This document shows, piece by piece, positions 1 to 15,112 of a stretch of DNA of 15,112 bases. The notes beneath the pieces were generated by a model. That model was not told the origin of the DNA and did not search any database. It saw only the letters and a list, made by a program, of their open reading frames with translations. The position numbers and the translations under genes were made by a program. The DNA lies in IMG/VR virus record IMGVR_UViG_2541047905_000022, one strand, 5' to 3'. The stretch is from a virus (taxonomy: Duplodnaviria > Heunggongvirae > Uroviricota > Caudoviricetes). Each line of letters starts with the position of its first letter. The stretch's first letter is position 1.

Positions 1-798
1 TTAATGAACATTCGTCGCCGAAAACGAGTCTGTATCATTAGCGTGATGCAGTCTCTGCAAAGGATCTTGTTGATAAAATTGACAGAAACGTTGCCACAAT
101 GAAGGGAAACGAGGAGCAAAAAGTTCTGGGGCGCTAAAGAAATATTCAGAAAGTACGGCAAAACATTCAGCAGGATCACTGGCAGCATAAGCATCAATGC
201 TCGCCGCATTCTCACCAACTAATTCGATTTCTTCCTGAATGTTGTTCATTGCAGCATGAAGATCGTGTTCCCAGCCAGCAACCTCACGCAACGAAATAAA
301 GGGAACTCCGCTGGCGCGATCGCCGTTACGGGTGTCCAGCTTATGAGCGACTTCATGAATAATCAGGTTAAAACCAGAAGCATCAAAAGAATCTTGTATA
401 TCCAACCAGTTCAAAACGATAGGCCCTTGCTGCCAGCTCTGACCTGACTGAACAATACGTTGGTTATGCACCAGACCGATATCGTCTTCCCATTCATCAT
501 CGACCACAAATGGCGCAGGATAAATTAAGACTTCATGAAAACCATCCAGCCATTCCAGTCCTAACTCCAGAACGGGCAGGCAAAATAGAAGTGCTATCCG
601 GCAGCTTCTTAATGAATTCAGCTCAAAGCCCTGTAAAGGAACAAGCCGTTTTTGCTGTAAAAAACGTTCGGCAAGAGCGACCAATTTGCTTTGTTCCTGT
701 TCTGTCAGACACGTTAAAAGGGGGATCGATAGTGCTTCCTGCCAGGGAAGGGCAGTTTGATGTGCTGATTCTTGTACTTTCCAGGGCCACTTAATCAT
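1..798 (-). CDS. mtfA: Mlc titration factor A (MtfA/YeeI), 265 aa
   Basis: ORF 1..837 minus; from the internal Met the product reads [23 protein letters not shown]..., which I recognise as the enterobacterial MtfA N-terminus; HEVAHKLD metallopeptidase-like motif present; stop TAA at 3..1. Start placed at the ATG at 798 rather than the ORF-track start at 837. Confidence 0.9.
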
Positions 799-891
799 CG
801 TTTTGCTCGCAAACTCGTCACTTGAACAAAATTGCACGGACAGGGACTGTTAAAATGCCAAATTTCCTGGCATCATGGCAACCATCTGAAC

Positions 892-981
892 GGAGAGATG
901 CCGGAGCGGCTGAACGGACCGGTCTCGAAAACCGGAGTGGGGGCAACTCCACCGGGGGTTCAAATCCCCCTCTCTCCGCCA
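892..981 (+). tRNA. serU: tRNA-Ser (anticodon CGA), 90 nt including encoded CCA
   Basis: Acceptor stem GGAGAGA (892-898) pairs with TCTCTCC followed by G-CCA (979-981); anticodon stem CCGGT/ACCGG with 7-nt loop CTCGAAA, anticodon CGA at 926-928; long variable arm typical of class II tRNA-Ser; TTCAAATCC T-loop. Confidence 0.9.
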
Positions 982-1026
982 AAATTCAATCACTTACACA
1001 TCATTAAGTCAGTGACAAAAATCACA

Positions 1027-1062
1027 CTTGGAATTACTTGGAATATTTTCTTGGAATATTTT
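1027..1062. repeat. Tandem direct repeats CTTGGAAT(A/T)(A/T)TT at the attL-proximal end of the integrase gene (possible arm-type integrase binding sites)
   Basis: CTTGGAATTA (1027-1036) followed by two perfect copies of CTTGGAATATTTT (1037-1049, 1050-1062); these overlap the last codons and stop of the integrase gene, immediately next to the tRNA 3' end. Confidence 0.4.
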
Positions 1063-2059
1063 CAGGTAACGGGACATCAAGTGTTGGTGAAACTTTAACC
1101 TTCCTGTCATAGATTAGCACTTGCCCTTCGGTTTTGTGACCAGAGAAAAGTTGCTTATCCCGGCTGCTTCCTTCATAGTCTGAAATTCCTTTCGCCTTCA
1201 GATCATGAAAGGTGAAGTCGGTTAAAATACCTGAAATTTTTCCAGCACGATTTCTTGCTTCTACCCACATTTCGTTAAAGCCTTTGTACATATATCGGTT
1301 GCCGTATTGATTGCTGATCACATAGGCAGATTTTGGTAACTGTTTTGCTTTTTCGATCGCTGCCTGTAATCGTGGACTCCATGCTTTTATCTGTTTTTTT
1401 CCGGTTTTCCCTTGCTGGATGAATATCCCGTCGTTTCCAATCTGTTCCCATTTCAGCGATAACACATCGGAAACCCTCGCTGCACACAGATAGGCAATTT
1501 CCATTGCGATAAAAACAGGAAGAGGTGCAACGCTTAATACTGCCTGGTATTCTTTGTCGGTTACATATCGTTCGCGGTTTTTGGCCTTGAATTTACTTAC
1601 ACCTGCACATGGGTTAGCCTTGACGTACCCTCGCTCATACCCCCAACTGTAAACACGGGACATACTGCTTTTTTCATGGTTGGCTTGCGTTTTACTCTGC
1701 TCCCCTCTTTTGTCCATGTATCGACGGATGTGTTCTGGTTTTATGGAATCCGCTGGTACCTTACCGAATACGGCAAGCAACTTTTTTTGATGTTGCAGAT
1801 AATCTTTTTGTGTTCTTGGACTAAGGTCACTGTAACAGGCGCTGGCGAGGAATTTTTCCCACAAGCGACCGAATGTCATTGCACGATCGCGATTATTTAC
1901 AGTTTCCTCATACTTTTTCCATAAAGCAGCTAAACCATCCTTGATGGCGGTTAGTGTGACAGATTCTCTGGATGTTGGTTTCCATACATAACTATATTTA
2001 TTTGGGTATACATTTGGAGGTAATTTTTCGTGTTCAGGATTTTTCCTTCGTCTTCCCAT
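1034..2059 (-). CDS. int: Phage integrase, tyrosine recombinase family, 341 aa
   Basis: ORF track 1034..2059; C-terminal half carries a tyrosine-recombinase-like signature (CAARVSDVLSLKWEQI ... FTFHDLKAKG ... VLIYDRK); gene ends 52 bp from the tRNA 3' end and points toward it, the classic tRNA-attL-int arrangement. Confidence 0.9.
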   Translation of the reverse strand: MGRRRKNPEHEKLPPNVYPNKYSYVWKPTSRESVTLTAIKDGLAALWKKYEETVNNRDRAMTFGRLWEKFLASACYSDLSPRTQKDYLQHQKKLLAVFGKVPADSIKPEHIRRYMDKRGEQSKTQANHEKSSMSRVYSWGYERGYVKANPCAGVSKFKAKNRERYVTDKEYQAVLSVAPLPVFIAMEIAYLCAARVSDVLSLKWEQIGNDGIFIQQGKTGKKQIKAWSPRLQAAIEKAKQLPKSAYVISNQYGNRYMYKGFNEMWVEARNRAGKISGILTDFTFHDLKAKGISDYEGSSRDKQLFSGHKTEGQVLIYDRKVKVSPTLDVPLPENIPRKYSK

Positions 2060-2320: not shown

Positions 2321-4795
2321 TTAAAAATCAGCCTGACTCGGGATCAGTTTTTGCCAGATAGCTGAAACGTATTTTGCCTGGTAACGAGCGTCATCAAGTG
2401 CATTATGGCGCTCACCTTCGAATGGAATAGCCGTTCTGGCATCGAAGTCTATGGCTTTCCCCAGCTCAACGATTGTGCGTACATCGCGATCGTTGTAGTA
2501 ACGCCACGGGCAGGGGATCCCCTGCCGTTCGTATGAACGGCGCAAAATCGTGTTGTCGAAGTTGGCTCCATTTCCCCAGACCTGAACAAAAAATTCACCG
2601 GAGTTTTCGTCGATAAATTCCCGCAATTGTAACAGTGCATCATCTAACGGGATTTCATCGGTCATAATGGCAGATTGCGCTTCGCGTGATTGCTTAAGCC
2701 ACCATTTAATGGTGTCCCGATCAATGACCCCGCCAGCAGTTTCCAGATCGATAGTCTTACTAAATTCCGGTCCCATATCTCCGGTTTGCGGATCGAAAAA
2801 TATTGCACCTATTGAGATGATCGGGGCATCAGGATTTTTTCCCATGGTTTCAAGGTCGATCATTAGATGGTCACACGTCCTGCTGGTGGATGTGATTTCT
2901 TGATGACCGTTCACCTTAATTGAGTGATCTGCCGTCTCGCCAGTTTCATTATCGCTATCGTGATGCTGATTGCCGCCAGTGTTCTCCTTGTGTGGATGTT
3001 CAGCGCCTTCCATTTCCTCCGGATCATCTTCCTGAACTTCAACCTGATACTCTTCATCGAATGTTTCCTGGTATGTTGCGTCGCCCATCACCGCGCCACA
3101 ATCAGGGTAGTTGCCGCCGCCGGTCTGACCGCAGGCGGTGCAGACTTTTTCCACTTCCTGTTGCGCCACTGGTTCAGGATGTTTCGTTTCTGGCTCGTTT
3201 TGTAACGCATTTGGGCTGTTTTGTTCCGCTTTCTGGCCGTTCTGTTCCGTTTCTTGCTGGTTCTGATTCACTGAATCGCGGGTTTCAATCCCCTTCACCC
3301 ATTTCGGATCATTCGGGTCGCTAATCCCTGCAACAAATTCACCACGTGATACAGCAAGCAACTTATTGGCGTCAGGCTGGCTGATATTGGCTGCCTGCAT
3401 AATTTTGTTTACTTCGTCAGCGGTAACTTTTACCGGCTCTGGTTGTGCGATCGTGTCAGATGCACCAGTATTTTGTTGTGAACCTGAGTACGTGCCGTTT
3501 TTACGTGCGAAGTATTCCTCTTTTGTGATTTCCGTAGCTCCCAGGGCCAGTGCTTTTTCCAGACCAGAAAGTTTGTTTGCGCGACCGTATTTTTCGCCGT
3601 CCTTATCGGTGAAAAGGAAGTAGAACGGTCCCTCACGCTCTACAGATGGTTCGTCTTCCACTTCGCATTCGGTTTTTTCGTTGTCCGGCATTGCCGTTTC
3701 CACTGCATCAGTTTCTGGTACTGGTGACGGGAGAGTACCAGCTGTGCCCTGATTTGTTCCTTCGTCATCTTCAAACACGCCCTTGGTAGTCAGGTATTCA
3801 GTGATGTATTTGTTCAGTGCTACGGGATCTTTGTGAATGTCGATCGGACGCTCACGGACAAGGCCAAAAATAGTCTGACGGTCGTAGCGAACGGCATCGG
3901 GTTGTTTGCGCATTGATGCGGAAATGCGCTTCCAGTCTTCGCGATCTTTGTCGATAACTTCATTTTTTGCCCGGCGATGGATGCTGCCGTCAATGTTTCC
4001 GGTATCAATATCGCCAGGCCAGAGAGCGTAGGCCAGTTCTTCATCCAGCGTTTTCCATGTCTGCTTGTATTCGCGACAAATGGCGGCAGTGACTGGGTTG
4101 ATTTTTCCTGCTGAGTTTTCAGTGTGCTGTTGATTGACTCTGGCGCGGGCGAGATCAACAACAGACGTGTATTTTCCAGTCTCTTTGCGCTCTGCGTCCT
4201 GCCGTTTTTTCCAGTTACGTAATTCAGCCTGAATTTCTGGCCATTTGGCACCCGGATTACATTTGTGTTTAACCCATCCGATAGCGAACAGTTTGCGTTC
4301 CGGATACATAGCGTTAATTTCAGGCGTTTTCATCAGTGCTTCAACGATATGCCCGTCAAAGGTAGCAACGTCTTCCTGCAGTAATTCCTGCGCGTCAATC
4401 GCCATATCAACGGTGATGTTTTCACATGTACCGAACTTAACCAGGACCGCGTTCTGTACTTCAAGGGACAGCTTGTCAAAATTGACGTTCATCGGATCGG
4501 ATTCTGGTTCGACCGGAATAAAGGAAGCGGATTCCTCATCCCAGCGGTTTTCCTGCATATATTCAGCATCCCAGGAATCGAGGGCAGGGCGGGGTATGCC
4601 GGGTTTATCCTCGCAAACAAGAAATTTATAAGCGCAGTCCTGAGCAGCCGGATAATGTTCCAGGAATTGCCAGTGAAATTTTGCGCGGGCGCGACGTTCA
4701 TCACCGGCTTCAATGGCAGTGGCCACCGCAACAGCGCTATCTTCTTTTATGGCCTGTTCGTCAGGAATAGCAGCGCAAATAAAGATTTTACTCAT
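2321..4795 (-). CDS. Large phage protein (824 aa) with C-terminal DnaQ-like DEDDh 3'-5' exonuclease domain
   Basis: ORF 2321..4795; C-terminal ~180 aa carry exonuclease motifs MIDLETMG (Exo I), VWGNGANFDNTIL (Exo II), ERHNALDDARYQAKY (Exo III, DEDDh type); central acidic/Q-rich low-complexity linker and a Cys cluster CTACGQTGGGNYPDCG; GAGG Shine-Dalgarno 10 nt upstream of the ATG at 4795. Confidence 0.85.
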   Translation of the reverse strand: MSKIFICAAIPDEQAIKEDSAVAVATAIEAGDERRARAKFHWQFLEHYPAAQDCAYKFLVCEDKPGIPRPALDSWDAEYMQENRWDEESASFIPVEPESDPMNVNFDKLSLEVQNAVLVKFGTCENITVDMAIDAQELLQEDVATFDGHIVEALMKTPEINAMYPERKLFAIGWVKHKCNPGAKWPEIQAELRNWKKRQDAERKETGKYTSVVDLARARVNQQHTENSAGKINPVTAAICREYKQTWKTLDEELAYALWPGDIDTGNIDGSIHRRAKNEVIDKDREDWKRISASMRKQPDAVRYDRQTIFGLVRERPIDIHKDPVALNKYITEYLTTKGVFEDDEGTNQGTAGTLPSPVPETDAVETAMPDNEKTECEVEDEPSVEREGPFYFLFTDKDGEKYGRANKLSGLEKALALGATEITKEEYFARKNGTYSGSQQNTGASDTIAQPEPVKVTADEVNKIMQAANISQPDANKLLAVSRGEFVAGISDPNDPKWVKGIETRDSVNQNQQETEQNGQKAEQNSPNALQNEPETKHPEPVAQQEVEKVCTACGQTGGGNYPDCGAVMGDATYQETFDEEYQVEVQEDDPEEMEGAEHPHKENTGGNQHHDSDNETGETADHSIKVNGHQEITSTSRTCDHLMIDLETMGKNPDAPIISIGAIFFDPQTGDMGPEFSKTIDLETAGGVIDRDTIKWWLKQSREAQSAIMTDEIPLDDALLQLREFIDENSGEFFVQVWGNGANFDNTILRRSYERQGIPCPWRYYNDRDVRTIVELGKAIDFDARTAIPFEGERHNALDDARYQAKYVSAIWQKLIPSQADF

Positions 4796-11696: not shown

Positions 11697-12383
11697 ATGA
11701 CCCCAATAAAAATATTTATGACTATTGCTGATTTCAAACGGCCTAAATTGGAGCTCCCAAACGGGGCAAACAAACTACTACTGCACTCTTGCTGTGCTCC
11801 ATGTTCCGGTGAAGTGATGGAGGCGCTTCAGGCCTCGGGAATCGACTACACCATCTTTTTCTACAACCCGAACATTCATCCTCAGAAAGAGTATTTAATT
11901 CGTAAGGATGAAAATATTCGCTTTGCTGAACAACACGGCGTGCCGTTTATCGATGCTGATTACGACACCGACAACTGGTTTGAACGTGCCAAAGGAATGG
12001 AATGGGAGCCTGAGAGGGGGATCCGTTGTACCATGTGTTTTGACATGCGTTTTGAGCGGACAGCGTTGTACGCTGCTGAAAATGGTTTCAGTGTGATCAG
12101 CAGTTCACTGGGCATTTCACGCTGGAAAAATATGCAGCAGGTTAACGAGTGTGGGCGGCGAGCTGTTGCGCATTATCCGGGTATGGTGTACTGGGATTAT
12201 AACTGGCGCAAGCAGGGCGGCTCGTCCCGTATGATTGAAATCAGCAAGCGCGAAAAATTCTATCAGCAGGAATATTGTGGCTGTGTGTATTCTCTGCGCG
12301 ATACCAATCTACACCGCAAATCTCAGGGACGCCCTCTTATCAAAATTGGCCAACTCCACTACGGAAAAGAAGAGAAGGAGTGA
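11697..12383 (+). CDS. queH: Epoxyqueuosine reductase QueH (DUF208 family), 228 aa
   Basis: ORF 11697..12383; hallmark QueH motifs [14 protein letters not shown] (N-terminal), [15 protein letters not shown] (central) and [13 protein letters not shown] (C-terminal). No clear Shine-Dalgarno before either candidate ATG (11697 or 11718), so the start is uncertain. Confidence 0.8.
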
Positions 12384-12415
12384 TTTTATGGATCACCTTT
12401 CTGATTGATTTCATA

Positions 12416-12444
12416 TTGGCGAGGTGACGTGAGTTAAGTAGAAT
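12416..12444 (+). promoter_or_regulatory. Candidate promoter of the hok-type toxin mRNA
   Basis: -35 TTGGCG (12416-12421), 17-nt spacer, -10 TAGAAT (12439-12444); the predicted transcript 5' end GGCTGCGGGTGCTTGAGG (about 12446-12463) is near-complementary to the 3' region CCTCAACGCACCCGCA (about 12826-12841), a fold-back-inhibition arrangement typical of hok mRNAs. Confidence 0.4.
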
Positions 12445-12499
12445 GGCTGCGGGTGCTTGAGGCTATCTGTCTCAGGCATGAACACTGAAAGGCAGATAG

Positions 12500-12572
12500 A
12501 GAAAAGCCCCAGTTAACATTTCGCGTCCTGCAAGACGCTTAACATTAATCTGAGGCCCAATCTATGTCTCAC
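12500..12572 (-). ncRNA. Candidate Sok-like antisense RNA of the hok locus
   Basis: Minus-strand -35 TTGCCT (12607..12602), 17-nt spacer, -10 TAACCT (12584..12579); the predicted antisense transcript would cover the GAGG Shine-Dalgarno (12552-12555) and in-frame upstream ATG (12564) of the hok leader. The 3' end is not defined; a GCGTC/GACGC hairpin lies at about 12522-12537. Confidence 0.3.
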
Positions 12573-12620
12573 AAATGTAGGTTAGCCTCTTACGTGCCGA
12601 AAGGCAAGGGGAAGCAGGCT

Positions 12621-12776
12621 ATGAAGCAGCAAAAGGCGATGTTAATCGCCCTGATCGTCATCTGTTTAACCGTCATTGTGACGGCACTGGTAACGAGGAA
12701 AGACCTCTGCGAGGTACGAATCCGAACCGGCCAGACGGAGGTCGCTGTCTTCACAGCTTACGAACCTGAGGAGTAA
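12621..12776 (+). CDS. hok: Hok/Gef family type I toxin (HokD/RelF-like), 51 aa
   Basis: ATG at 12621; product MKQQKAMLIALIVICLTVIVTALVTRKDLCEVRIRTGQTEVAVFTAYEPEE, which I recognise as Hok-family (essentially HokD/RelF); single transmembrane helix plus conserved C-terminal tail. The ORF track extends it in-frame to 12564 (70 aa), a mok-like upstream start. Confidence 0.85.
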   Translation: MKQQKAMLIALIVICLTVIVTALVTRKDLCEVRIRTGQTEVAVFTAYEPEE

Positions 12777-12845
12777 GAGACCCGGCGGGGGAGTAATCTC
12801 CCGCCACCTCTGATGTGCCAGGCATCCTCAACGCACCCGCACTTA

Positions 12846-12866
12846 ACCCGCTTCGGCGGGTTTTTG
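12846..12866 (+). terminator. Rho-independent terminator of the hok mRNA
   Basis: Stem CCCGC - loop TTCG - GCGGG (12847-12860) followed by TTTTT (12861-12865). Confidence 0.7.
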
Positions 12867-12877
12867 CATTAGTCTGG

Positions 12878-12906
12878 TTGACAAAAATAGAAAAATGCGA
12901 AAATAT
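12878..12906 (+). promoter_or_regulatory. Candidate promoter for the two-gene cassette
   Basis: Perfect -35 TTGACA at 12878-12883; 17-nt spacer; weak -10 AAATAT (12901-12906); about 36 nt upstream of the ATG at 12942. Confidence 0.35.
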
Positions 12907-12941
12907 GTGGTTTACGAATTCTAAAAAAAGCGAAACTTGAA

Positions 12942-13592
12942 ATGAATGAAAATCAGTTAGCTCCTTGTTGGGAATTTCAACCTTATCTTGCTGAAAACTA
13001 TGTTCGCCACTTGTTGGCGGAGATCGCTAACGTACTTGAGCAGCTGTACTATCATAAGCACGCATTAGACAGCAACTGGTCTGAAGGTGTAAGGGCTTAT
13101 GATTGGGTCAGAAATCATCTTATTCAAAATGAAGATGCAATTCCTGGCCTTGAGATGATTTCCAAGGGGTTGGACTATGTAGTTGCTTTAAATAAAGTTC
13201 CGCTACAATTTACCAAAGATTGCATTAATAACCCCAAAAAGAAACATCGTCTGCGTCGAAATAAAGTAGAGTATGAGCAGCTCTCATTGTTTGGTGATGT
13301 TGAGGCTGAGCAAGATATTACATGGCGAGTCATAGCTGAGCCTTTTTTATCCGAAGAGGGCGATGGTGAATTAGAGTCCACACTGCCTCGTTGGGAGGTA
13401 GCTCTTGTTGGATTTAATACTTATGGTGCTCAGATTAGTATAGTTTCTCATCAATCTACAGCATCGATGCCGCTTATGCCTCTTGATTATAACACACTCC
13501 CTGACGAAGCGGAGATTAATAAGGTGCCTCTTCGTCGGCGTACGAAGGATAAAGATTTGGATGTGAGCAGTGATGGAACATCAGGTGAATAA
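12942..13592 (+). CDS. Hypothetical protein of unknown function, 216 aa (first gene of a two-gene cassette)
   Basis: ORF 12942..13592; no family recognised; helical N-terminal half, basic patch KKKHRLRRNK, acidic C-terminal tail; visibly more AT-rich than the flanking replication genes; 3' end overlaps the next gene by 20 nt. Confidence 0.7.
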   Translation: MNENQLAPCWEFQPYLAENYVRHLLAEIANVLEQLYYHKHALDSNWSEGVRAYDWVRNHLIQNEDAIPGLEMISKGLDYVVALNKVPLQFTKDCINNPKKKHRLRRNKVEYEQLSLFGDVEAEQDITWRVIAEPFLSEEGDGELESTLPRWEVALVGFNTYGAQISIVSHQSTASMPLMPLDYNTLPDEAEINKVPLRRRTKDKDLDVSSDGTSGE

Positions 13593-14676
13593 CTTCACTG
13601 AGTATCGGGGTGATAAGCTCAAACTAGCGAGAATGGCTGTTGGGCTTTCTTGTGAAGAGTTAGCCGAAAAAATTGGCAAGACAAAGCAATTCGTTAGCAA
13701 ACTGGAGAAGGGGTGCAGGCCATCGGAGCAATGTCTTGAGTTAATATCTTCAGCGCTTATGATTAAGTCCAGTTTTCTTTTTACTGAACGAAAATACGCT
13801 CTGGAAAGTGATGTCTGCCATTTTCGGAGTAAGAAGTCCAGGACTCAAACGCTGACTAATAGTGTATTGGCCAGGGCTGAGATTCTTAATATTATAATTT
13901 CTGCTGTTGAAGGTGAAATCGAATTTCCTGACGTTAACATACCGGAGCACCCAGGGGCTGAATTACTTACTCCGAATGATATTGAGCGAGTGGCAGAAGA
14001 TTGTCGCCGTGCCTGGAATTTAGGTCTTGGCCCTATATCATCAATGGTTAAATTGGCGGAGAGTTTAGGGGTAATCGTTGCGCATGTTACGGGAGTCGAT
14101 GATCGTGTTGATGCTTTTACTGTTCACAATAACAGGCCTGTTATCATCAGGAACAATGTTAAAAAAAGCATATGTAGATTTCGCTCTGATTTAGGTCATG
14201 AATTAGGGCATTTAGTAATGCATGAGGGCATAACGACAGGTGATAAACTTACGGAATCACAAGCCGATCACTTTTCGAGCGCCTTATTAGTTCCCAGGTT
14301 ATCTTTCATTAAAGAATTTCCACGAATACGAGGTAAGCAATTCGACTGGAATGCTCTGGTTGAATTTAAACTTAGATGGAAAATCAGCCTTAAAATGTGT
14401 ATTTATCGAGCCAGCGCATTAGGCTTATTGACCCAGGAACAGGCAAGAACTGGCTATATGCATCTTAATTCCAGAGGGTATACGAGAGTTGAACCTGGTG
14501 ATGAACTTTTGCGCCCTGAAGAACCCGGCATGCTGGCCGAGGCGATTGAAATGCTGGATGATGCAACCTGGCTAAGAATTCTTATGAAAACTGGCTTGAG
14601 CCAAGATTTAATTCGTGAGTTGTTCTCCATCAACAGACCTATTACAAATCCAAGAAATATTTTCCAGATTGTTTGA
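13573..14676 (+). CDS. HTH XRE-family regulator fused to ImmA/IrrE-type (M78, COG2856) zinc metallopeptidase domain, 367 aa
   Basis: ORF 13570..14676 with ATG at 13573; N-terminal HTH LKLARMAVGLSCEELAEKIGKTKQFVSKLEKG; peptidase HEXXH motif in DLGHELGHLVMHE; domain order HTH then ImmA-like is the fused version of ImmR/ImmA or CapH/CapP-type regulator pairs. Confidence 0.8.
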   Translation: MEHQVNNFTEYRGDKLKLARMAVGLSCEELAEKIGKTKQFVSKLEKGCRPSEQCLELISSALMIKSSFLFTERKYALESDVCHFRSKKSRTQTLTNSVLARAEILNIIISAVEGEIEFPDVNIPEHPGAELLTPNDIERVAEDCRRAWNLGLGPISSMVKLAESLGVIVAHVTGVDDRVDAFTVHNNRPVIIRNNVKKSICRFRSDLGHELGHLVMHEGITTGDKLTESQADHFSSALLVPRLSFIKEFPRIRGKQFDWNALVEFKLRWKISLKMCIYRASALGLLTQEQARTGYMHLNSRGYTRVEPGDELLRPEEPGMLAEAIEMLDDATWLRILMKTGLSQDLIRELFSINRPITNPRNIFQIV

Positions 14677-14681
14677 GTATA

Positions 14682-14706
14682 CCCGCTTCGGCGGGTTTTT
14701 TGTTTT
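14682..14706 (+). terminator. Rho-independent terminator after the HTH-peptidase gene
   Basis: Stem CCCGC - TTCG - GCGGG (14682-14695) followed by TTTTTTGTTTTT; the 20-nt core ACCCGCTTCGGCGGGTTTTT is identical to the terminator at 12846-12865. Confidence 0.7.
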
Positions 14707-14785
14707 TATTTTCAACGTGTTTGAAGTTTTGGACGGTGCCAGAATAGAATCAAAAATACTTAAGTAGCGCGCAGGGAGAAGAGGG

Positions 14786-14887
14786 ATGGACCCCGAACAG
14801 GGGGAGTGCTATTTATCTGGAAGGATTCTGTTGATGAAAATCGAAGAATTACGTGAAATTTTTAGTGAAGATGGCCTCTATGCTGTG
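14786..14887 (+). pseudogene. 5' fragment of an ORF apparently truncated by the IS insertion
   Basis: Candidate promoter (-35 TTGAAG 14721-14726, -10 TAGAAT 14745-14750) and GGAG Shine-Dalgarno precede the ATG at 14786; the reading frame MDPEQGECYLSGRILLMKIEELREIFSEDGLYAV runs directly into the IS terminal repeat, whose first bases TGA (14888-14890) supply the stop. Confidence 0.3.
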
Positions 14888-15112
14888 TGAACCGCCCCGG
14901 GTTTCCTGGAGAGTATTTTATCTGTGAACTCAGGCTGCCAGATCATCGTTTCCGATGGAAGCATAATAAGCTTTTTCTGCTTCTGCCGGAGGAGTATGGC
15001 CCAGCCTTTCCAGCAATCGTCGATTGTTATACCAGTCCACCCACGTGAGTGTGGCCAGTTCCACTTCTGCACGGTTTTTCCAGCTCTTACGGTGTATTAC
15101 CTCCGCTTTGTA
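14888..15112 (-). mobile_element. IS3-family insertion sequence, IS629/IS1203-like, terminal portion (element continues beyond the window)
   Basis: Sequence from 14888, TGAACCGCCCCGGGTTTCCTGGAGAGTATTTTATCTGTGAACTCAGG, matches the IS629-type terminal inverted repeat as I recall it; followed on the minus strand by the C-terminal end of an IS3-family OrfB transposase. Confidence 0.8.
14930..15112 (-). CDS. IS3-family transposase OrfB, C-terminal 60 codons (5'-partial, start outside window)
   Basis: Minus-strand translation ...YKAEVIHRKSWKNRAEVELATLTWVDWYNNRRLLERLGHTPPAEAEKAYYASIGNDDLAA then stop (TGA, plus 14930-14932); the WVDWYNNRRL motif is the conserved DDE-integrase C-terminal signature of IS3-family transposases. 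Confidence 0.8.
   Translation of the reverse strand, partial: YKAEVIHRKSWKNRAEVELATLTWVDWYNNRRLLERLGHTPPAEAEKAYYASIGNDDLAA

Follow-up and report, generated by a model that had tools for sequence, protein, structure and literature searches.

A predicted RosmerTA cassette bracketed by two copies of a 20-bp terminator downstream of hok in a lambdoid Escherichia coli prophage

The IMG/VR virus record IMGVR_UViG_2541047905_000022, analysed here as a stretch of 15,112 bp (the window), corresponds to the left part of a lambdoid Escherichia coli prophage. We investigated a two-gene cassette that lies directly after the hok gene, encodes a predicted RosmerTA toxin-antitoxin (TA) system (rmrT and rmrA) and is bracketed by the 20-mer ACCCGCTTCGGCGGGTTTTT. 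An earlier note, made from the sequence alone, had claimed identical 20-bp terminators in direct orientation after hok and after the gene for a helix-turn-helix (HTH)-peptidase, here rmrA, and this was borne out at exact coordinates. The window contains exactly two instances of the 20-mer, 12846-12865 and 14681-14700, on the plus strand in each case and spaced by 1835 bp, and a repeat search found it to be the sole exact repeat bracketing the region. No third copy was found in the window, even with up to three mismatches, and none arose in 200 dinucleotide shuffles. The two copies agree over 20 nt and no further, as the adjacent bases differ on both the 5' side (a/t) and the 3' side (g/t). The left copy lies 70 nt 3' of the hok stop (12776) and the right copy 5 nt 3' of the rmrA stop (14676), each on the same strand as its gene. 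The features of the bracketed region are listed below.

12846..12865, plus strand: T_L, left repeat copy and predicted intrinsic terminator of the hok mRNA (repeat search, hairpin call and fold; same position in more than 120 hok loci)
12866..14700, plus strand: inserted DNA relative to empty-site phages, 1835 bp, holding the putative promoter, rmrT, rmrA and the terminator (empty sites L001, L002 and L230; GC content)
12878..12906, plus strand: putative cassette promoter, with -35 TTGACA at 12878-12883, a 17-nt spacer and -10 AAATAT at 12901-12906 (sequence reading, conservation)
12942..13592, plus strand: rmrT, candidate RosmerTA toxin of 216 amino acids (aa) (PADLOC RmrT model PDLC03929, 4.6e-25, residues 7-209 of 216)
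13573..14676, plus strand: rmrA, candidate RosmerTA antitoxin of 367 aa (PADLOC RmrA model PDLC03943, 6e-105; start taken from the annotation of E. coli ML35)
14681..14700, with the T-run to 14701, plus strand: T_R, right repeat copy and predicted intrinsic terminator of the cassette (repeat search, hairpin and fold; same stem but other loops in relatives)

Both copies were scored as terminator-like, with a stem of 6-7 bp containing 5 G-C pairs, a 4-nt UUCG loop and a run of 5-6 T. Their folding energies are -10.9 and -11.4 kcal/mol, with a z score of about -3.4. By sequence, both 20-mers represent a single, very common type of Rho-independent terminator, with a 6-bp ACCCGC/GCGGGT stem, a UUCG loop and a U-tract, and the hairpins predict termination at both. 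In folding calculations, variants with a TACG or TATAT loop were as stable as the form with the TTCG loop. Therefore, thermodynamics does not dictate the exact terminator sequence, and we ruled it out as the cause of the exact loop.

The cassette itself is, as far as its sequence can tell, a RosmerTA toxin-antitoxin system. RosmerTA consists of a Zn-peptidase antitoxin with a functionally uncharacterised toxin and acts in phage defence (bioRxiv 10.1101/2022.05.11.491447; PMC10440598). Like the known systems, the cassette is a two-gene operon in which a toxin of unknown fold is followed by an antitoxin with HTH and ImmA/IrrE Zn-peptidase domains, and both products match the PADLOC models. The genes are co-oriented, and the 3' end of rmrT overlaps the 5' end of rmrA by 20 nt. 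The rmrT product has no Pfam domain and no solved relative in the PDB. The rmrA product contains an N-terminal XRE-type HTH (Pfam HTH_3, 5e-07) and an ImmA/IrrE Zn-peptidase domain (Peptidase_M78, 6e-11), and its HELGH (HExxH) motif is encoded at about 14199-14213. We predict that the system serves the lysogen as anti-phage defence. It may be transcribed in the lysogen from a sigma-70-type promoter of its own, as a perfect -35 element (TTGACA) lies 12 nt past the left terminator; the -10 element AAATAT agrees with the consensus at 3 of 6 positions, and a consensus scan missed the site. The putative promoter is kept in cassette relatives that are 80-94% identical and lie in four different contexts, and homology among these relatives starts precisely at GGTTGACA (alignment A1). 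Of 5,426 complete E. coli genomes, 237 have the cassette, in most cases with at least 99% identity. A blastn search with the cassette against INPHARED phages gave no match, and the analogous cassette of phage Tritos was reached only via its hok flank. In E. coli FDAARGOS_1249 (NZ_CP069459.1), the cassette is split by an IS5-family insertion.

The earlier note had proposed comparing hok-carrying relatives that lack the cassette, and these have one terminator followed by the sequence found in the window after 14700. In HannyBb and PPompW_14040, for example, hok is followed by the 20-mer once, and gtttttattttcaacg... / gtttttattttcaacgcgtttgaag..., which is the window sequence after the right-hand copy, comes immediately next. 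Several phages matched positions 12400-15112 in two pieces spanning only about 650 bp when this region was searched against phage records using megablast. Among about 125 hok loci from IMG/VR, 76 have the empty arrangement and 10 have the arrangement of the window. Because the empty sites have a single terminator and the same right-hand sequence, the inserted DNA is limited to 1835 bp. A precise insert boundary, also claimed in the earlier note, is thus obtained except for an ambiguity of the 20-bp repeat itself, as the insert can be read as 12866-14700 or equally as 12846-14680. The GC content, suggested there as a further check, is 41.5% between the repeats and about 50% (50-52%) in the flanking prophage DNA. 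A unit of promoter, rmrT, rmrA and terminator that has deviant GC and is absent in relatives is therefore a textbook moron. It fits the definition in "The moron comes of age" (PMC3594210), a review of the concept of Juhala and Hendrix, with the expression element being putative.

We gathered relatives of RmrT irrespective of their flanks and grouped them by identity, which allowed us to follow the right terminator away from hok. The 100% class (31 loci) lies in the hok context and has the exact terminator on both sides. The 94% class (4 loci and STEC346) also lies in the hok context but ends with the right terminator ACCCGCTACGGCGGGTTTT and continues into another backbone; the left copy of STEC346 deviates as well (ACCCGtTTCGG...), and its left and right terminators are unlike. 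The single locus of the 87% class lacks hok, yet has the exact 20-mer at its right end. The 85% class, which includes KL53, has neither hok nor a left copy, and its right terminators combine an ACCCGC/GCGGG stem with a TATAT, TTCAT, TGCAT or TGCTT loop. In the 83% class (L271), again without hok, an unrelated membrane-protein gene ends with ACCCGCTTTGGCGGGTTTTTT, 12 nt short of the cassette promoter, and ACCCGCCATTGGCGGGTTTTTT closes the cassette itself. All relatives from 83 to 100% identity thus have a right terminator of their own in which the stem is kept while the loop varies (TTCG, TACG, TATAT, TTCAT, TGCAT, CATTG). Sequence comparison therefore indicates that a terminator of this type has been borne by the cassette throughout its traceable history. 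Because relatives outside the hok context have the same stem, and one lineage even the exact 20-mer, the right copy is the cargo's own terminator, and we ruled out that it is a duplicate of the hok terminator. In one IMG/VR locus of the 100% class, the right terminator reads ACCCGCTTCGGCGGGG, after which come about 17 T and then an unrelated flank, possibly through an assembly artefact or a homopolymer expansion of the U-tract.

The slot directly after the hok terminator holds one of several alternative cargos, or none. The cassette of the window (Rosmer-1) is one of them. Rosmer-2 (204 + 381 aa), found in phage Tritos, ends with ACCCGCCTCGGCGGGTTTTT, one base off the exact core. Rosmer-3 (213 + 373 aa) ends with the exact core and is a near-perfect match to the reference models (PADLOC RmrT 5.5e-93, RmrA 4e-201); compared with this cargo at the same site, the RmrT match of the window, at 4.6e-25, is moderate, and its activity is predicted. 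Doc-A consists of a small open reading frame (ORF) and a Fic/Doc protein of 161-164 aa with an HPFANANKR motif (Pfam Fic, 1.6e-11), and both Doc-A and its variant Doc-B end with the exact core. Hence, the exact core stands at the end of four of the five cargo types, Rosmer-2 being the exception. The hok, Doc and RosmerTA modules are all of toxin-antitoxin type and have the same terminator end. Judging from these sequences, lambdoid prophages have a hotspot for TA and defence cargos just after the hok terminator. Tandem arrays of two recognised cargos were not seen in the sampled loci; the nearest arrangement is Doc-A followed by other backbone or by a HigBA-like pair. We also asked if the exact right terminator is tied to the hok context, as, counted by lineage, four of six hok-context cargos have the exact core, but several non-hok lineages have it too. 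The association is not clean, and we did not use it as evidence.

Individual loci illustrate the same slot. Rosmer-2 or Rosmer-3 occupies it in L004 (Tritos, OV696610; 3446-5333) and in L134, L205, L221 and L228. A Phd/Doc-like pair, made of an ORF of 59-75 aa and the Fic/Doc protein, is bracketed by the same terminator in L118 (690-1550), L168 and L147. In L147 this pair is followed by what appears, by eye from the translations, to be a HigB/HigA-like pair on the reverse strand, which suggests a small TA island.

The joints between these modules and their neighbours lie at the terminator. The cargos at the hok site are joined to at least five different right-hand backbones, and every junction falls there. 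The rem63 flank follows either the hok terminator or the Rosmer-1 terminator; a Rac-type spacer and an orf83-DUF1367 backbone each follow the hok or the Doc-A terminator; and an orf117-DUF968 backbone ("Z") follows Rosmer-1 (94% class), Rosmer-2, Rosmer-3 or Doc-B. At least four right flanks are found with Doc-A alone. Each right flank begins at the same nucleotide past the T-run, whichever module precedes it, and on the left module-specific sequence abuts the terminator (...cactta in hok, ...gagtat in Rosmer-1, ...aatgaaa in Doc). Therefore, the exchange points lie within the terminator of about 20-26 bp. The sharpest example is the pair L002 and L157, which are 99.9% identical over 3,415 bp through the terminator and unrelated from about 4 nt past it. 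Furthermore, identical 330-bp hok alleles have different neighbours, in one case rem63 and orf83, and in another sp96 and Doc-B.

We think it probable that the cassette is a terminator-bounded moron that was shuffled by short-homology recombination within the shared terminator. The cassette sits between the hok terminator and the rem promoter, so that the left copy would preserve the 3' end of the hok mRNA and the right terminator would insulate rem from transcription of the cassette. The shared stretch of about 20-26 bp would act as a short homology patch, used by recombination functions of phage or host to join modules. If a phage with hok, a terminator, rmrTA and a second terminator crossed over within the terminator with a phage carrying hok, a terminator and rem, the direct repeat would result. 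Such a crossover would also explain why the loop is TTCG here and TACG in the 94% lineage on another backbone. The same process could swap other terminator-bounded TA and defence cassettes into and out of the hok site. Recombination between the two flanking copies would precisely delete the cassette, and the released circle could re-insert at any other copy of the terminator. Of the two routes offered in the earlier note, recombination at the hok terminator or repeated capture of a module bounded by terminators, the capture of such a module fits best, while a right copy made by duplicating the hok terminator does not stand. We infer that the junctions arose by homology-dependent recombination rather than by selection acting on random joints.

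The strongest rival, which we consider possible but clearly the less likely of the two, holds that hok and RosmerTA each carry an independent, generic and near-optimal terminator, that they were joined illegitimately, that the repeat has no role in mobility, and that the joints lie at terminators only because selection keeps transcription units intact. Several observations favour it or weigh against recombination within the terminator. The exact 20-mer is found in at least 120 IMG/VR stretches, and 103 of the 124 occurrences among the matches listed are unrelated to hok or the cassette. It also ends relatives of Doc (70-78% amino-acid identity) and of Rosmer-1 (87% class) far from any hok context, where it is native, so the two identical copies could stem from two modules, each of which came with this common terminator. 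Perfect identity extends over 20-21 bp, or up to about 26 bp at the many junctions that share the T-run and GTT. Where lambdoid phages recombine with defective prophages, phage Rad52-like recombinases produce mosaicism even when homology is short or diverged (De Paepe et al. 2014, PMC3945230), but the homologies assayed there were hundreds of bp long, and the minimal efficient pairing segments quoted are 23-27 bp for Redbeta and 31-34 bp for RecA, so that the patch here lies at or just below the minimum. No Red or RecET-type recombinase was recognised among the scanned ORFs of the window, and the -10 element of the cassette is weak. A synthetic hok-terminator-rem junction searched against 5,426 E. 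coli genomes gave no isogenic filled and empty pair at 99% identity or higher, the best empty site reaching 96% (E. coli 025542-1; 98.3% over 2 kb on the right-hand side of the terminator, 95.4% across hok), and in those genomes no recent insertion or excision event is documented. Therefore, either the event is not recent or the parent is unsampled. Finally, selection for intact transcription units after random joining would also leave joints at terminators.

Because the 20-mer is generic, its identity alone is weak evidence of common descent, and the argument is carried by comparisons specific to the locus. A search of both strands of 123 lambdoid loci with hok (1.23 Mb) found the core 123 times at the hok terminator and 22 times within 2.2 kb downstream on the same strand, and nowhere else in that DNA; other terminators in these loci have the same stem and different loops. 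The core is therefore not scattered in the relevant genomes. The concern raised in the earlier note, that the repeat might be a common motif scattered across genomes, thus applies to unrelated phage contigs, where the 20-mer is very common, and not to hok-carrying lambdoid DNA, where it is confined to the hotspot. Random joints would be expected to scatter through the spacers, whereas at least four right flanks start at one nucleotide after the terminator, cargo-specific sequence abuts it on the left, and L002 and L157 part within about 4 nt of it after 3.4 kb at 99.9% identity. Nor does stability force the identity, as other loops are equally stable and are found in the cassette family. With a generic motif, no documented recent event and a selection that would also favour joints near terminators, we hold recombination within the terminator to be probable rather than near certain, and independent terminators brought together by chance to be a real but lesser possibility.

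Two further explanations would also yield a direct repeat around the cassette, and each appears very improbable. In one, a transposase or site-specific recombinase made staggered cuts and thereby duplicated 20 bp of the hok terminator as a target site. The resemblance is formal only, consisting of a direct repeat around the insert and a single copy at the empty site. A search of both ORFs using Pfam and PADLOC found only RmrT and RmrA, with no transposase, recombinase or other mobility gene, and a repeat search of the cassette ends found no terminal inverted repeats. KL53 and the rest of the 85% class keep the right terminator without a left copy, and the two terminators differ in the 94% lineage (STEC346). 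A 20-bp target duplication is also unusually long for a transposase. We consider transposition with target-site duplication effectively excluded by the missing transposase and inverted repeats and by the absence of the left copy in other contexts. The other explanation supposes that the hok terminator was first duplicated in tandem, by slippage or unequal exchange, and that foreign DNA was later caught between the copies. This would likewise give identical direct repeats with a single copy in relatives, but the expected intermediate with two terminators in tandem occurs in no sampled locus, and the right copy is already explained as the cargo's own terminator, found in relatives without hok. 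A prior tandem duplication is thus effectively excluded too.

A broader version of recombination within the terminator is that the ACCCGC-UUCG-GCGGG-U(n) terminator is a dedicated, portable exchange site for TA and defence cassettes across enterobacterial temperate phages, which we regard as speculative and rather unlikely. Here, the cassettes (hok, Doc and several RosmerTA variants) would be released as mini-circles able to integrate again at any further copy, forming a recombinase-light, integron-like or PeSL-like cassette system in lambdoid prophages. A portable exchange site would account for the retention of the exact 20-mer at cargo ends although the proteins are only about 75% identical; in the Doc family, this exact end is also seen in non-hok contexts even at 70-78% protein identity. 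At many unrelated sites (e.g., L015, L018, L042, L055, L063, L070 and L093), the 20-mer is followed by a similar string, (t)tatgcccggag...ATG, and in another group of phages it may move together with a conserved ribosome-binding region downstream of it.

RosmerTA, the moron concept and shuffling mediated by regulatory motifs are already known, and overall we regard the present case as clean but fairly ordinary phage "moron" evolution. As in other morons, extra DNA of deviant GC lies between two backbone genes, is absent in close relatives, has its own promoter-like element and terminator, and carries a cargo that benefits the lysogen, a benefit that is predicted here. The moron concept leaves the entry route unspecified, whereas here the terminators of the moron and of the neighbouring gene are identical and the joints of alternative cargos all lie at the terminator. 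The closest parallel is found in T4-type phages, in the promoter-early stem-loop (PeSL) cassettes (Arbiol et al. 2010, PMC2839356), in which motifs flank variable genes and one motif remains at the empty site. Recombination between those motifs was proposed to cause deletion, insertion and replacement, and mini-circles were physically shown. The window likewise has a terminator-hairpin motif on both sides of variable genes and a single copy at the empty site. PeSL, however, is a promoter plus stem-loop of about 100 bp that occurs about 50 times per genome in virulent T4-like phages. In the temperate lambdoids studied here, only the terminator of about 20-26 bp is shared, the sequence after it differs between cargos, promoters included, there is one hotspot per prophage, and circles are a prediction, whereas the PeSL circles were seen physically.

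The site also resembles the defence hotspots of P2 and P4 phages (Rousset et al. 2022, PMC9122126), in that a fixed position of a temperate phage holds alternative anti-phage or TA systems from isolate to isolate. It differs in phage family and in position, after hok in the nin/Q-proximal region of lambdoids, and the terminator as junction is what our data would add to that picture. We found in the literature no direct description of a hok-terminator hotspot or of terminator-mediated shuffling in lambdoid phages. Our analysis yields a base-pair-exact boundary for a prophage-borne cassette predicted to be a RosmerTA defence system, and points to a hotspot after the hok terminator with three RosmerTA and two Phd/Doc-like variants whose junctions lie at a shared 20-bp terminator. 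Because it holds alternative cargos, the site is a practical target in the search for new defence genes. Should the terminator indeed be a recombination substrate, it would provide a simple mechanism for the exchange of morons and defence systems between temperate phages without dedicated mobility genes, and it would extend the PeSL idea, described to date in T4-type phages, to lambdoid phages.

The window begins with an MtfA-like host gene, followed by the integrase, Rha, a cI-like repressor, Cro, a YdaT-like gene, a DnaT-like replication gene and P. After P come DUF1627, DUF977, QueH, hok/sok, RosmerTA and rem, which is cut by an IS3-family element at 14888. E. coli ML35 has the identical arrangement without the insertion sequence (IS), with rem followed by DUF968, RusA and Q. 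The remaining features around the cassette are as follows.

12451..12626, plus strand: region of the antitoxin RNA sok, from a type I toxin-antitoxin locus, hok/sok (Rfam RF01794, 120.5 bits, E = 3e-28)
12564..12776, plus strand: mok reading frame, containing hok (12621-12776, 51 aa) (Pfam HOK_GEF 3e-23; ML35 hokD)
14721..14750, plus strand: promoter-like site 5' of rem, TTGAAG-18-TAGAAT (consensus scan; directly after the single terminator in empty-site loci L001 and L002)
14834..14887, plus strand: 5' fragment of rem, IS-interrupted (comparison with the uninterrupted gene of ML35)
14888..15112, strand not assigned: end of an IS3-family insertion sequence that extends past the window edge (begins TGAACCGCCCCGGG / TGAACCGCCCCGGGTTTCCTGGAG; matches "IS3 family transposase" in thousands of E. 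coli records)

The IS3-family element interrupts rem after 54 nt of coding sequence, and the same prophage region in ML35 is IS-free. ML35 annotates the identical hok locus as hokD, and its coordinates were carried over via a fixed offset. Rfam placed the sok match on the plus (hok-sense) strand despite sok being antisense, which probably reflects the orientation of the model or alignment. The hok locus also matches PP818812.1, "Actinobacillus phage vB_Apl-pPE4", at 97.5% over 435 bp; this is surprising for the stated host, and the record may represent an E. coli-type lambdoid phage or a host mis-assignment. Just 5' of hok lies a QueH-type epoxyqueuosine reductase gene (11697-12383, plus strand; Pfam QueH 1.1e-65), an unusual accessory for the nin-proximal region that is missing from the empty-site prophage of strain 025542-1.

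At the other end of the window (1-2059, minus strand), the integrase (1034-2059) adjoins the MtfA-like Peptidase_M90 host gene (1-837), which indicates the left attachment end of the prophage. At 2321-4795 on the minus strand, an early-left-operon gene encodes a protein of 824 aa, whose sole recognised domain is a C-terminal Rv2179c-like 3'-5' exoribonuclease (1.6e-67).

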